From a phage, in the NCBI GenBank assembly GCA_018580065.1, contig GCA_018580065.1_4845.1: DNA of 46,716 nucleotides. One strand, 5' to 3'. Shown here piece by piece: positions 101-4,168 of this stretch. The translations under genes and the position numbers were made by a program. The notes under the pieces were generated by a model. It was given only the letters and a program-made list of their open reading frames with translations. It was not told the DNA's origin and searched no databases. The first letter of the stretch is position 1. Every line of letters starts with the position of its first letter.

Positions 101-109
101 ATTATATCA
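101..109 (-). promoter_or_regulatory. late-type extended -10 promoter (TGATATAAT on minus strand)
   Basis: attatatca on plus strand is the reverse complement of TGATATAAT, about 30 nt upstream of the ATG at 71. Same 9-mer class precedes 8 other minus-strand genes. Confidence 0.45.
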
Positions 110-120
110 TCTCAGTGGTG

Positions 121-149
121 TTGACACCTGTGAGGCGGTGATGTAGATT
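121..149 (+). promoter_or_regulatory. sigma70-like promoter TTGACA-17-TAGATT
   Basis: TTGACA 121-126, 17-nt spacer, TAGATT 144-149. Drives the plus-strand cassette 185-1060. Contains the TGATGTAGATT motif. Confidence 0.6.
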
Positions 150-1857: not shown

Positions 1858-1886
1858 TTGACAGTGATTATTTTGTGGTGTAGATT
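1858..1886 (+). promoter_or_regulatory. sigma70-like promoter TTGACA-17-TAGATT
   Basis: TTGACA 1858-1863, 17-nt spacer, TAGATT 1881-1886. Near-duplicate of the promoter at 121-149. Confidence 0.6.
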
Positions 1887-1892
1887 TATATG

Positions 1893-2326
1893 CAACAGAG
1901 ATTTGTTCCCTGATTTCATTTAATTACAGCAAGTCCTTTAATTAAATTAGCGGTCGAGAGACGCCGGACGCGTAACCGGCACACAACAGGTGAGAGCATT
2001 TGGTGAATCGGCGATACTGCCCCACAAGCCCGTAGCCATCGATAGAGGTAGACAAGTGCTCTTTCCGTTGTGGTGAATGCGCAGGCTGATGCGCTAACTC
2101 GCGTGGGTTCCGGTGGTTTCACCGGGTAGACAGGGATTAACTGACCTGCCTCCGTAGATGAAAAGGCTAGCGGCCACAAGACACGGGGAATCATCAAGCC
2201 GGAAATCAGCACCGGCCACCACAACACTTAATATCCAGCATTATCGCAATCATATATAGGGGTATGTATGGGTTACGGGGCTGGATATTAAGAAAGCACG
2301 CTGGCAATGCTTAAACCAGCACTTAT
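1893..2326 (+). ncRNA. candidate structured non-coding leader RNA co-transcribed with the tRNA
   Basis: No plausible ORF on either strand (longest plus-strand ATG ORF 33 aa, no RBS). Local hairpins at 1963-1980, 2079-2094, 2110-2125 and 2198-2216. A 13-bp perfect inverted repeat at 2227-2239/2280-2292. Bracketed by a promoter and by the tRNA plus terminator. Confidence 0.35.
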
Positions 2327-2403
2327 GGACGCGTAGCTTAATTGGTTAAAGCAACCGACTCATAATCGGCTGATTGAAGGTTCAAATCCGTCCGTGTCCA
2401 CCA
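2327..2403 (+). tRNA. tRNA with anticodon CAT (elongator Met or Ile2-type), CCA encoded
   Basis: Hand-folded cloverleaf. Acceptor GGACGCG/CGTGTCC, D stem GCTT/AAGC, anticodon loop CTCATAA, T loop TTCAAAT, 3' ACCA. Mismatches A27-C43 and A51-G63 are typical of phage tRNAs. Confidence 0.85.
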
Positions 2404-2409
2404 AATTAA

Positions 2410-2437
2410 AAGCCGCTTCGTGCGGCTTTATTTATTT
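2410..2437. terminator. rho-independent terminator (works in both directions)
   Basis: Stem AGCCGC/GCGGCT, loop TTCGT, T-rich tail on plus strand and TTTTAATTT on minus strand. Confidence 0.75.
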
Positions 2438-2806
2438 CACAACCCGCAAAAGCAACTCATGCACAGGTCTTTTCTCTTCCGTCAGCATTGGCCTACCGAG
2501 CGGAGCCTGCAACTGGATGTAGTTAACGCATGAATCAATCGGATGGGTTTTGATGTATTCGATAATCTCATTGGCTTTAGCGTCAACATCAGCCACATTG
2601 TATTGTCCTTGTTTCCCAACAATGTACAACGAGAAATAGAAGTCACCACCGAGGTCGTCCATAACCTGCGTTCCACCGTTGGATTGCAGGACAATAAACT
2701 GCTCGTTTCCATCTCCGGTGTCATTCCAGAACTGCAACTGCGAAGTCCAGCCATTATACAACCCGGCATCCTGAAGATATGCGTCAACCAGTTCAAGCAT
2801 ATTCAC
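2432..2806 (-). CDS. tail terminator / tail completion protein (putative)
   Basis: 124-aa ORF, last of the connector gene string, overlapping the upstream gene. Assignment by position. Confidence 0.6.
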   Translation of the reverse strand: MNMLELVDAYLQDAGLYNGWTSQLQFWNDTGDGNEQFIVLQSNGGTQVMDDLGGDFYFSLYIVGKQGQYNVADVDAKANEIIEYIKTHPIDSCVNYIQLQAPLGRPMLTEEKRPVHELLLRVVK

Positions 2807-3204
2807 AGTTTCATCTCCTTCTTAATCACGCTGTCAACCAGGTCTTTTGTGCGTTGCGCCGCTTTGGTCAGAAATTGCGGCTCACCGCCCGGACTCCAAT
2901 ATGTGCCATTACCGTTGCTGCGCGGTTTGCCTGTAAGTTTTCCACTGGCGTTGTGGGCGTACAGCGCATATTTCGCAGAGTAGCCAACCTTACCAGTGAT
3001 TCGCGTTCCGCTAACTTCCACGGTATCAAACTGACTGTTAATCAGCGTTGATGTGTCAATTGGCGTTAGTGTGGCTGATTCGGTGCGGATGATGTATGTC
3101 GCCGATTTCAGAGCGCGCACAGCTTTCGTGGCGATTATCTCATCCACAATCTGCGATGTTCTTTCTACGGCCTGCCGGACGCCTCTTAATTTCGCTGGCA
3201 TCAT
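2803..3204 (-). CDS. HK97 gp10-like neck/tail completion protein
   Basis: 133 aa. Pattern and size resemble the HK97 gp10 family. Coupled overlaps on both sides. Confidence 0.65.
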   Translation of the reverse strand: MMPAKLRGVRQAVERTSQIVDEIIATKAVRALKSATYIIRTESATLTPIDTSTLINSQFDTVEVSGTRITGKVGYSAKYALYAHNASGKLTGKPRSNGNGTYWSPGGEPQFLTKAAQRTKDLVDSVIKKEMKL

Positions 3205-3542
3205 GTCACCAGTGCGAAATCAGGTGGCTCAGCGCGATTGAACGTATTGCCATAATTAATCACATTCAGAATCTGATTTGCGCCAGCAACCAGCGGGTCA
3301 GCTTCTGTCACCGTGCCAATCATGATGTAGTCGCCAGTCTTAGCACCAACATACTCAGTCCAGAACGTATTCTTCTGCACAATCTCATTGCCTTTCGCAT
3401 CGGTAGATACATCATCGTTAAAACCATAATCGCACATGATGCTCACTGGCTCATCAAAAGTCGGCTTGCCGTACTTGTCGGTTCCGGTCTTGTGCCAGAT
3501 AGTGCATGGCTGCGTGTAAGAAAACCGAGAGATTGAGGTCAT
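3201..3542 (-). CDS. head closure / head-tail adaptor protein (putative)
   Basis: 113-aa ORF in the connector string. Assignment by position and size. Confidence 0.6.
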   Translation of the reverse strand: MTSISRFSYTQPCTIWHKTGTDKYGKPTFDEPVSIMCDYGFNDDVSTDAKGNEIVQKNTFWTEYVGAKTGDYIMIGTVTEADPLVAGANQILNVINYGNTFNRAEPPDFALVT

Positions 3543-4168
3543 AAAACATTCCTATATGAACGATTTTTCTTGATGTGCTGGATAGCACCTTTAGACACGC
3601 CAAACTCATCAGCAAGTGATTGTGAGTGCTCTCCATTTGCTAGTCTGGTTCTCACCTCCCTAACCTGATCATCAGTTAATTTAGCGTGTTTTGGAGTCCT
3701 GCCGAACATTGGGTTTTTCTCGCCAATTCTTGATTGCGATATTTTCTTTCTTGTTTCTTCTGTTTTTGGACCCATAGAGCAAGGTGGTGTTTTCCCATAC
3801 CAGCAGTTATTCTTTCCCATCCTGCTTTTGCTCATTTTAGCTTTAGCCACATCTGTTGCCTGAACCCCCAAGCACGTACCAGCTATTTTTGCCACATTAT
3901 ATTGAGGACTTAGCTTGTCTATGTAGAATTGCTCTCTACTAAGCAGGATTGATTCATCGTTAACAATTTCAAGAATTGAAAATCTGAATAATGACTCGCC
4001 ATATTTTGCTCCATCATTATACAACCTGTGTGGGCTGTGCATGCCATTCCTCATTTTGTATCGATGCACAGCAATTCTATTGGTGTAGCTTATTGTTGAA
4101 CCAACATAAATCTCTTTAGTTATTGTATTTTCAATCTGATATACAGCCATCACTCTCTTCATTTGCAC
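3539..4168 (-). CDS. GIY-YIG homing endonuclease
   Basis: N-terminal VYQIEN...IYVGST...R..H GIY-YIG motif, repeated NUMOD-like K/G-rich modules, C-terminal HTH. AT-rich insert between connector genes. Confidence 0.85.
   Translation of the reverse strand: MQMKRVMAVYQIENTITKEIYVGSTISYTNRIAVHRYKMRNGMHSPHRLYNDGAKYGESLFRFSILEIVNDESILLSREQFYIDKLSPQYNVAKIAGTCLGVQATDVAKAKMSKSRMGKNNCWYGKTPPCSMGPKTEETRKKISQSRIGEKNPMFGRTPKHAKLTDDQVREVRTRLANGEHSQSLADEFGVSKGAIQHIKKNRSYRNVL

Follow-up and report, generated by a model that had tools for sequence, protein, structure and literature searches.

A predicted modular RNA with a tRNA-shaped core in a Skate-like siphophage and its relatives in Proteobacteria

The stretch of DNA analyzed here, referred to below as the window (46,716 nucleotides [nt]; contig GCA_018580065.1_4845.1 of GenBank assembly GCA_018580065.1), appears to be an essentially complete Skate/E1-like siphophage genome; it encodes terminase, portal, tape measure, tailspike and primase and is most closely related to Skatevirus-type phages of Salmonella and Escherichia. 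Set between tail and connector genes on the minus strand is a plus-strand unit (positions 1858 to 2437) made up of a promoter, a structured stretch free of open reading frames (ORFs) from approximately 1893 to 2326, a transfer RNA (tRNA) gene with the anticodon CAU and a terminator. At the level of sequence, the comparisons presented below establish the structured stretch, which we call scaffold RNA, as what would be an independently transcribed modular RNA with a tRNA-shaped core, maintained by purifying selection, diversified by the exchange of cassettes and without a dedicated protein partner. An earlier note, made by reading the letters of the window, had drawn attention to this unit, and all the features it listed were recovered, displaced by 1 to 2 bases at most.

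In the GenBank phage collection, matches cover at most 68% of the region, because in the relatives its middle part is replaced at fixed junctions. When the window was aligned with phages Skate and PSH-1 (alignment A1), both ends of the region (the first ~115 and the last ~110 nt) were approximately 90 to 100% identical, as were the promoter, the tRNA and the terminator, and the middle had been swapped for unrelated sequence of another length at those junctions. A conserved hub, CACACAAC-AGG-U-AAGAGCA [insert 1] UGCUCUU-U-CC-GUUGUGGUG-AA-[body]-CACCACAAC, was found in the P22-like phage HK620, between the late promoter pR′/qut and the late terminator, in Klebsiella phage Magnus (Ackermannviridae) and in Klebsiella siphophage 6991, where it lies behind the same promoter type and adjoins a putative, unannotated major tail gene, a position that agrees with that in the window. 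Two Skate-like relatives (loci L010 and L089) retain the RNA and the terminator, the 3′ domain running straight into the latter, without the tRNA. The RNA is thus not a tRNA leader, and the label "leader" given to it in the earlier note has to be dropped, the tRNA being optional and the RNA the main product. The proposal of a phage-encoded structured RNA, in turn, gains from these two relatives and from the homologues in general, in which conservation and covariation reach well beyond the tRNA and no coding frame is conserved.

The core of the RNA is a tRNA-shaped module on the plus strand (2067 to 2225), with a body that in the window is of the commonest type among the homologues. It is closed by an acceptor-like stem of 7 base pairs (bp; 2069 to 2075 with 2217 to 2223), which in the window extends to 9 bp (2067 to 2075 with 2217 to 2225) and appears in the minimum free energy (MFE) fold; the two extra pairs form in about half of the members, the window included, and the contiguous lengths of this stem peak at 7 to 9 bp. 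Two adenines (A2076 and A2077) stand at the acceptor junction, and the module contains a D-like hairpin (GCGCA-GGCUGA-UGCGC, 2079 to 2094) and a T-like hairpin (GCCGG-AAAUCAGCA-CCGGC, 2198 to 2216), both on the plus strand. Covariation was evaluated in 107 distinct homologous units by counting pairs in a fixed-register alignment (A2). In this set 93.5% of the cells pair, against 87.1% in column shuffles (none of 500 shuffles reached 93.5%), double compensatory changes amount to 137 cells against 30.7 expected from the shuffles, and slid controls, with the 3′ partners shifted by 1 to 3 columns, gave only 26 to 50% pairing. Approximately 60 G.U cells would read as A.C mismatches on the opposite strand, which indicates an RNA made from the plus strand. 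Within the 7-bp stem, the five varying pairs show 27, 26, 19, 8 and 4 double changes, and the two junction-side pairs vary one-sidedly. The 5-bp stem of the D-like hairpin is 98.5% paired, with double changes in four of its five pairs, and that of the T-like hairpin is 93.1% paired, again with double changes; the D-like 20-mer is conserved far outside the Enterobacterales, even in searches anchored on the T-like hairpin. The two loops would be held together by a loop-loop (kissing) helix of five pairs (GCUGA, 2085 to 2089, with UCAGC, 2206 to 2210), 98.5% paired and with 12 G.U cells, for which locus L047, having switched both loops to GUCGA and UCGAC, provides the sole doubly compensated variant. 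The 7-bp stem and the 5-bp T-like hairpin add up to a 12-bp arm, as in tRNA, across the 107 units, and the kissing loops are placed where the D and T loops of a tRNA meet.

The place of the anticodon and variable arms is occupied by a hypervariable payload of 103 nt (2095 to 2197, plus strand). We found 155 distinct payloads of 24 to 178 nt in the homologous units, swapped wholesale between close relatives. The payload part of the query had no match among the listed E. coli hits, and no consistent stem-loop was seen in the shortest payloads when these were checked for an anticodon arm. The four local hairpins pointed out in the earlier note divide accordingly: those at 1963 to 1980, 2079 to 2094 and 2198 to 2216 are conserved in the wider family, and the one at 2110 to 2125 falls within the variable payload. 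In Skate, PSH-1 and other phages, the same slot holds an alternative body whose D arm (GCUC..GAGC) and T arm (GGUUCGAUUCC) are canonical; the bodies of L039 and L124 are similar, with U8 and a GG-containing D loop. An Asn-Tyr-Thr-Ser tRNA array of the phage-plasmid L127 has the module between its Thr and Ser genes, with spacers of a few bases at most. The module of the window (2067 to 2225) was seen neither by ARAGORN nor by the Rfam tRNA model at E values up to 10.

The 5′ strand of the acceptor-like stem has a second partner, located upstream. An anti-acceptor hairpin on the plus strand (H1, 1982 to 2072), in which S1 (1982 to 1998) pairs with S2 (2057 to 2072), encloses insert 1 (1999 to 2056), and the S1/S2 duplex of the window was calculated at -25.4 kcal/mol (RNAduplex). 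Since the base of H1 (CACAAC, 1982 to 1987, with GUUGUG, 2067 to 2072) takes up six nucleotides that are also part of the 5′ strand of the extended (9-bp) acceptor stem, this helix competes with the acceptor stem. Near-perfect anti-acceptor helices of 18 to 22 bp occur with sequences that are unrelated between lineages, and in units with other acceptor sequences (e.g., CGUGAUGGUG, GUGUUGGUG or GAUGCAGUG) the upstream strand is altered to match. The best upstream duplex spans all 7 acceptor nucleotides in 80 of 102 units, and in 46 of the 102 it is more stable, by over 3 kcal/mol, than the best duplex from 20 shuffles; the pair 1992/2063 alternates between A-U, G.U and G-C among the homologues. 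As the acceptor 3′ strand covaries with the same 5′-strand nucleotides as S1 does, the acceptor 5′ strand has two partners, both of them kept by selection. Constrained folding gave a median difference of -0.8 kcal/mol between the closed state (tRNA-like) and the masked one (paired to S1), with 39 units having a closed MFE structure and 49 a masked one; for the window, the model prefers the closed form by 4.3 kcal/mol. Insert 1 is ~85% identical to the insert of the phage-plasmid L127 and has a near-identical copy in L093, the contexts being different, and it shows compensatory changes from CUGCC/GGUAG to CUGAC/GUCAG. In the window (2057 to 2064) and many homologues, S2 often reads UGCUCUUU or CGCUCUUU, which we take to be boxA-like; boxA is bound by NusB/NusE.

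The domains on both sides of the core are hairpins as well. The 5′ domain (1897 to 1937, plus strand) is an A+U-rich hairpin of the MFE fold with an outer stem at 1900 to 1907 and 1928 to 1935, and it shows compensatory differences (GAUUUGUU/AGCAAGUC versus GAUUGGCU/AGCCAGUC) among the three sequences of alignment A1. It is followed on the same strand by a mini-hairpin (GUC-GAGA-GAC, 1953 to 1962) and then by the hairpin GCCGG-ACGCGUAA-CCGGC (1963 to 1980), which directly abuts the hub. In the homologues, CACACAAC is always preceded by a hairpin, but the stems differ (CCGG/CCGG, CUCC/GGAG, CCUG/CAGG, CCAC/GUGG), and phage Magnus is among those in which the module GGTCGARAGACGCCGGA..GTAACCGGC is seen again. 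The 3′ domain (2227 to 2292, plus strand) is a long hairpin common to 11 distinct Skate-like sequences, with a 13-bp outer stem (2227 to 2239 with 2280 to 2292) and a 9-bp inner stem (2250 to 2258 with 2263 to 2271); RNAalifold on 10 distinct Skate-like sequences, a set of limited diversity, found two compensated pairs and several G.U transitions. A small plus-strand hairpin just upstream of the tRNA (GCUGG-[11 nt]-CCAGC, 2300 to 2320) is near-invariant, and covariation is hardly informative for it.

As a whole, the stretch folds to an MFE of -145.5 kcal/mol (z = -3.08), and none of 100 dinucleotide-preserving shuffles folds as well. The four longest ORFs in 1764 to 2307 have no match in PHROGs or Pfam. 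Together with the absence of a conserved frame in the relatives, which carry unrelated sequence of different length in the middle of the region, this bears out the view that no credible ORF is present. The G+C content is 0.50 to 0.56 over 1901 to 2300, compared with 0.415 for 1801 to 2000 (the promoter window) and 0.445 to 0.465 downstream; the stretch is therefore richer than its immediate flanks, as had been remarked, but no richer than the neighboring tail genes, so composition is a weak point in its favor.

To judge from anchored searches, the RNA is widespread. An anchor of 19 nt was found in more than 120 IMG/VR contigs (116 distinct variants) and a second anchor in at least another 120. 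Copies are carried by 640 of 5,426 complete E. coli genomes, on chromosomes and plasmids (some of ~110 kb), although the CPS-53 prophage of E. coli K-12, which was checked in case a copy there bore a named small RNA, has none. Of the listed E. coli copies, RefSeq leaves nearly all unannotated; an adjoining tRNA-Thr and one hypothetical protein are the exceptions. The 22-mer of the T-like hairpin occurs in 65 species-representative genomes, in approximately 50 of which the D-like hairpin is found 55 to 185 nt upstream, mostly with five or fewer mismatches to the consensus, plus the matching 7-nt 5′ strand. These ~50 genomes belong to Enterobacterales, Pseudomonadales, Oceanospirillales, Xanthomonadales, Burkholderiales, Alphaproteobacteria and a few metagenome bins assigned to other phyla, and the handful of 22-mer hits that lack the D-like hairpin probably arose by chance or from coding sequence. 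The same 22-mer is a CRISPR spacer in two arrays, from Marinospirillum alkaliphilum (L246, 3551 to 3886) and an Alcanivorax bin (L303, 7786 to 7940), both with the period of 61 typical of type I-E CRISPR; hosts therefore target the scaffold gene.

Most genomic copies have no tRNA within ~4 kb. When the neighbors of 52 loci were clustered, no protein family recurred in more than four, and the neighboring genes, as far as their translated sequences tell, are prophage-typical (lysozyme, RecT, YqaJ-type exonuclease). Neither a TROVE (Ro60) nor a reverse-transcriptase domain was present in the 10 long window ORFs scanned. Strong or constitutive promoters stand immediately before the unit. In HK620 (L004, ~1080 to 1610), the late leader of ~600 untranslated nt, from pR′/qut to the late terminator tQ, is built of modules of this RNA; as pR′ is constitutively active, an HK620 lysogen should make the RNA continuously. 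Several unexplained prophage RNA motifs stand in tandem in Stutzerimonas stutzeri (L243), where a DUF3800-VII RNA (2879 to 2963, Rfam, 50.5 bits) begins a few bases after the end of the scaffold unit and an int-alpA RNA (2008 to 2072) is located ~800 nt upstream. An extra module or two tandem hubs 180 to 215 nt apart were seen in PSH-1 (L003, ~1160 to 1400), L022, L043, L077 and L105, so the RNA can grow by the addition of units. In Klebsiella phage 6991 (L006, 1640 to 1675), the scaffold unit is followed by a sequence resembling the 3′ half of a tRNA (ACAGGUUCUAAUCCUGU CGCGGGA ACCA), in which ARAGORN detects no tRNA.

We compared the unit with known RNAs, using Rfam 15 on the whole window and 34 homologous loci at the gathering threshold and, for 1750 to 2500, also at E values up to 10. 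No plus-strand family covers the unit, in the window or at the 34 loci, so the Rfam check recommended in the earlier note left the structured stretch without a match on its own strand. A weak minus-strand match to Xanthomonas sX7 (2076 to 2168, 24.5 bits against a threshold of 55) reflects the resemblance of G+C-rich hairpins, mainly the reverse complement of the D-like one, and is probably coincidental. There was no Rfam match to self-cleaving ribozymes or group I/II introns, and ARAGORN found no transfer-messenger RNA (tmRNA) in the window or in loci L001 to L006. Literature searches with the literal conserved sequences and on YrlA, tRNA-like phage RNAs, lambdoid late-region small RNAs, GOLLD/ROOL and DUF3800 motifs turned up no description of this RNA, although it could have been described elsewhere. 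The Pas small RNAs are short Hfq-type small RNAs, and the study describing them contains no tie to the scaffold RNA (bioRxiv 2026.05.13.724894).

Among the closest parallels are the YrlA or bacterial Y RNAs, which mimic tRNA and are partners of Rsr, the Ro60 orthologue, with a GNCGAAN0-1G motif near the 5′ end and near-invariant canonical T and D arms as hallmarks (PMC4201824). Both kinds of RNA are non-coding, have a tRNA-like domain of acceptor-, D- and T-like elements and are found in phages, YrlA sometimes cotranscribed with tRNAs. The order in the window (hairpin, closed acceptor-like stem-loop [H1], D-like hairpin) resembles the T-AS-D of YrlA, and, set against the published description of YrlA (PMC4201824), GGUCGAGAG at 1952 to 1960 is one position off the motif, Magnus having GGUCGAAAG. 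However, the T-like loop of the window is non-canonical, the elbow is a Watson-Crick kissing helix, the payloads are hypervariable, and no Rsr/TROVE gene was found in the 10 scanned window ORFs or as a recurring neighbor in the 52 loci. GOLLD and ROOL are large, ornate phage and prophage RNAs that often adjoin tRNAs (PMC5737381, PMC12286853). Like the scaffold RNA, they are long, multidomain, frequently tRNA-adjacent and of unknown function, with no obligatory partner gene. Their models did not match (window at the gathering threshold and at E values up to 10, 34 loci at the gathering threshold), and they come from Firmicutes and from lake or rumen samples, whereas the scaffold RNA is found in Proteobacteria, is smaller (~430 nt), has a tRNA shape and is made of exchangeable modules instead of one conserved fold.

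The C4 RNA of P1/P7 and the CI RNA of satellite P4 are antisense immunity RNAs matured by RNase P. As phage regulatory RNAs cut from longer transcripts by tRNA-processing enzymes, with a frame that displays specificity loops, they resemble what we propose here, but the Rfam models C4 and c4-a1b1 had no match on the unit, which moreover has no target repeats in the genome, no encoded CCA and another architecture. In mascRNA, at the 3′ end of MALAT1, and in the tRNA scaffolds used for recombinant RNA in E. coli (PMC3753655), a tRNA-like fold likewise acts as a processing signal and a stabilizing chassis for unrelated RNA; these cases are eukaryotic or synthetic, while the scaffold RNA is natural, phage-encoded and equipped with a competing anti-acceptor helix. 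The DUF3800-associated and other prophage RNA motifs described by Weinberg et al. in 2017 (PMC5737381) are also unexplained structured RNAs of prophage intergenic regions, several unrelated structures being seemingly interchangeable. Their models match neither the window nor the scaffold, and no association with a DUF3800 gene was seen in the 52 loci. By its testable features, then, the scaffold RNA belongs with none of YrlA, GOLLD/ROOL, C4/CI or the tRNA-like processing modules.

We propose that the transcript would be a chain of modules consisting of the 5′ hairpin domain, the anti-acceptor hairpin, the tRNA-shaped module, the 3′ domain, an optional tRNA and the terminator. As the acceptor 5′ strand has two mutually exclusive partners, the module may adopt a masked or a closed state, a switch to which the folding models point. 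Maturation might proceed together with that of the tRNA by host enzymes that process tRNA and double-stranded RNA. The 12-bp arm and the placement in tRNA arrays suggest RNase P, with a possible cut near 2066 to 2069, and the 3′-end tRNA enzymes, and the helices of ~20 bp suggest RNase III, which might cut the long helix; for both enzymes the substrate status is judged from geometry, namely, the 12-bp arm and the helices of 18 to 22 bp. The RNA would then act in trans through its tRNA-like shape, as a stable chassis from which variable payloads are offered to a conserved component of the host, with the scaffold providing processing, stability and a binding surface and the payload providing specificity; the chassis could serve as a decoy for tRNA-directed enzymes or as the carrier of a regulatory RNA. 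A conserved host target in tRNA biology is suggested by the lack of a partner gene together with the conservation of the scaffold across proteobacterial classes, and a specificity role of the payloads by their wholesale turnover, as in immunity RNAs or anti-defense decoys.

These proposals are not equally secure. That the element is a functional structured RNA of this family seems to us very likely. The overall reading, with tRNA-like processing and action in trans, we favor with clear reserve, and any specific role, be it decoy or antisense regulator, is improbable when taken by itself. Only tentatively, and with more doubt than confidence, can the RNA be put forward as the first recognized member of an undescribed pan-Proteobacteria class of phage RNAs, with a bistable tRNA-shaped chassis, a kissing elbow, payload cassettes exchanged at the RNA level, a universally conserved host component and no dedicated protein partner.

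Several points weigh against our interpretation. The transcript, its ends, its processing and its function are all deduced from sequence. The homologues were gathered by exact-match anchors, so the anchor segments are in part invariant by construction, and kinship among the sequences inflates the shuffle statistics. Support for the kissing helix is mostly conservation, the variant of L047 being the only one with double compensation. A CCA at the canonical offset is found in only 10 of 159 units, the window not among them, without enrichment, and the T-like loop (9 nt, AGAUCAGCA) and positions 8 and 9 (AA) are unlike those of tRNA; with such a loop, AA at 8 and 9 and no encoded CCA, it is uncertain whether RNase P or the CCA-adding enzyme would recognize the module. 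Around 30 of the 102 units have no anti-acceptor helix, some beginning right after the -10 box, so that the two-state design is not universal, and the closed and masked energies leave aside pseudoknots and cotranscriptional folding. Nothing common to the payloads suggests a ligand. Finally, no complementarity of at least 14 nt was found in the window, the longest being one 13-mer, close to chance by our own estimate. The unit does run against the late genes, as the description "antisense" implied, but with no complementary target, and with no coding sequence overlapped save for a few bases at the terminator, that label is wrong.

Among the other explanations, the idea of a long 5′ leader serving only the expression or maturation of the downstream tRNA has in its favor the cotranscription expected for the two, 6 nt apart, and the modules that adjoin tRNAs in some relatives. 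It is close to refuted, and we give it very little credit, since the scaffold is conserved over several proteobacterial classes and the RNA persists without the tRNA in the two Skate-like relatives, in most genomic copies and in the late leader of HK620. Equally improbable is a decayed array of functionless tRNA pseudogenes, also suggested in the earlier note. A descent from tRNA is plausible, given the tRNA-shaped core, the canonical D- and T-arm bodies in the slot and the array position in L127, but the module is under strong purifying selection and is therefore not decaying. Exact blocks of 20 to 22 nt are kept from Enterobacterales to Burkholderiales and Xanthobacter, compensatory changes preserve the stems, and a decaying array would not retain a 7-bp stem, an anti-acceptor helix and a kissing loop foreign to tRNA. 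A cis-acting transcription element, put-like or containing boxA, that lets RNA polymerase read through terminators would fit the constant position just downstream of promoters and the boxA-like UGCUCUUU of S2. Yet the unit of the window is closed by its own terminator, the module also occurs inside tRNA arrays, the HK620 unit precedes the late terminator that depends on Q, a factor for which an autonomous antiterminator at this place would leave no need, and the boxA-like sequence is missing in many lineages and buried in the helix, all of which makes this explanation very improbable. The shuffling exactly at conserved blocks, and the occurrence of one insert 1 with different payloads and 5′ domains, could also point to a DNA-level feature, either junctions for recombination and cassette exchange or single-stranded DNA hairpins, with the RNA folds incidental. 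Recombination at the conserved blocks probably occurs as a consequence of their conservation, but the plus-strand-specific G.U pairs, the constant orientation to promoters, tRNAs and terminators and the loop-loop covariation leave this as the remotest of the explanations considered.

Two further proposals are sub-cases of our preferred explanation, a modular RNA acting through a tRNA-like chassis, rather than true alternatives to it. One would have the RNA act in trans for antisense control or immunity, in the manner of P1/P7 C4 and P4 CI, where a tRNA-like frame processed by RNase P carries payload loops that pair with phage or host messenger RNAs and the diversity of payloads reflects heteroimmunity or diversity of targets. 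The hypervariable payloads swapped wholesale on a constant frame agree with it, as do the position in HK620, from pR′/qut to the late terminator, which implies expression from the prophage given the activity of pR′, the superinfection-immunity moron with the same promoter type next to the unit in the window and the Rha/KilAC antirepressor gene just upstream of it in phage ECO95 1-6-1. On the other side are the absence of complementarity in the phage noted above, payloads of very different lengths without a common seed and the unmatched Rfam C4 model, and we hold this role to be unlikely. The other is a decoy or sponge for defenses or toxins that target tRNA (anticodon nucleases, acceptor-end modifiers), with the co-encoded tRNA replacing the depleted species. 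Phage tRNAs are known to counter tRNA-cleaving defenses, and the tRNA-like geometry, the link to phage tRNA genes and arrays, the arms-race-like exchange of modules and the lack of a partner gene, implying a conserved host target, are what would be expected; no anticodon-like loop is conserved in the payloads, however, CCA is not encoded, and carriage by prophages makes an anti-defense role less obvious. A decoy is thus a possibility worth keeping in mind but still an unlikely one.

The tRNA gene itself was placed at 2327 to 2403 on the plus strand by ARAGORN and by the Rfam tRNA model (63.4 bits), in agreement with the earlier assignment, and it has the anticodon CAU and an encoded CCA end. 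The structured RNA ends 6 nt upstream, and both are predicted to be cotranscribed. The only E. coli relatives of this tRNA (85% identity) are annotated as tRNA-Ile, and so is the Skate orthologue (L001, 1998 to 2074), which differs from it by one anticodon base, AAU instead of CAU. For this reason the tRNA is probably a lysidine-dependent tRNA-Ile2 reading AUA rather than a tRNA-Met. The AAU of Skate is an unusual anticodon for a tRNA-Ile of bacterial type.

The signals that bound the unit were largely as anticipated. The near-consensus promoter, of sigma-70 type (TTGACA-17-TAGATT, 1858 to 1886, plus strand), matches 10 of 12 consensus positions, with a predicted transcription start near 1893; it is identical in Skate and PSH-1 and was found also in phages ECO95 1-6-1 and Klebsiella 6991. 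An intrinsic terminator on the plus strand (2409 to 2437, stem 2409 to 2429), with an 8-bp stem containing five G-C pairs and a T-rich run after it, closes the unit and is kept in the relatives, including both of those without the tRNA. It had been described as bidirectional; its presence is clear, but the terminator scan lists the plus strand only. A separate promoter had been proposed for the major tail gene (1843 to 1851), and an extended -10 element read directly at 1844 to 1852 on the minus strand (TGaTATAAT), upstream of that gene and not part of the RNA, makes this reasonable. The flanking genes, both on the minus strand, code for the major tail protein (1090 to 1806; phrog_853, E = 8e-86) and for a tail-completion or Neck1 protein (2803 to 3204), the latter within a head-tail connector block (2432 to 3542).

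The minus-strand TGaTATAAT and the plus-strand TTGACA-17-TAGATT stand back to back in a divergent promoter cassette of ~50 bp that occurs twice in the window (101 to 149 and 1840 to 1886), each copy driving a plus-strand unit among minus-strand late genes. The first one drives a small cluster of plus-strand genes (185 to 1082) that ends at a hairpin terminator (1063 to 1082) read on both strands and includes a homologue of superinfection-immunity proteins (499 to 705, phrog_1039); the cluster has the look of a moron operon that parallels the RNA unit. In ECO95 1-6-1 (L002, 1640 to 2302), the tail-gene and RNA promoters are separated by the inserted Rha/KilAC antirepressor gene, which has a promoter of its own, and the RNA unit is intact. 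Among the connector and tail genes of the window there is also a gene for a GIY-YIG-type homing endonuclease (3539 to 4168, minus strand; phrog_314 and phrog_5123).

If our interpretation is correct, there is a conserved RNA gene where phage records usually have a blank or else small "hypothetical protein" calls, as in Skate, and it is carried by unrelated phage lineages (Skate-like, P22-like, Ackermannviridae and phage-plasmids) and by approximately one-eighth of complete E. coli genomes. Its correct annotation would matter for phage genomes considered for therapy. The masked and closed acceptor would be an example of a conserved conformational switch in RNA, and the natural combination of a constant frame with exchangeable payloads would parallel the synthetic tRNA scaffolds and might become a tool. 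The conservation of the scaffold in phages of enterobacteria and in prophages as distant as those of Burkholderiales and Alphaproteobacteria would imply a very conserved host target, probably in tRNA biology, and there is a substantial chance that the scaffold RNA, which would be a tRNA-mimicking non-coding RNA, deserves a class of its own.

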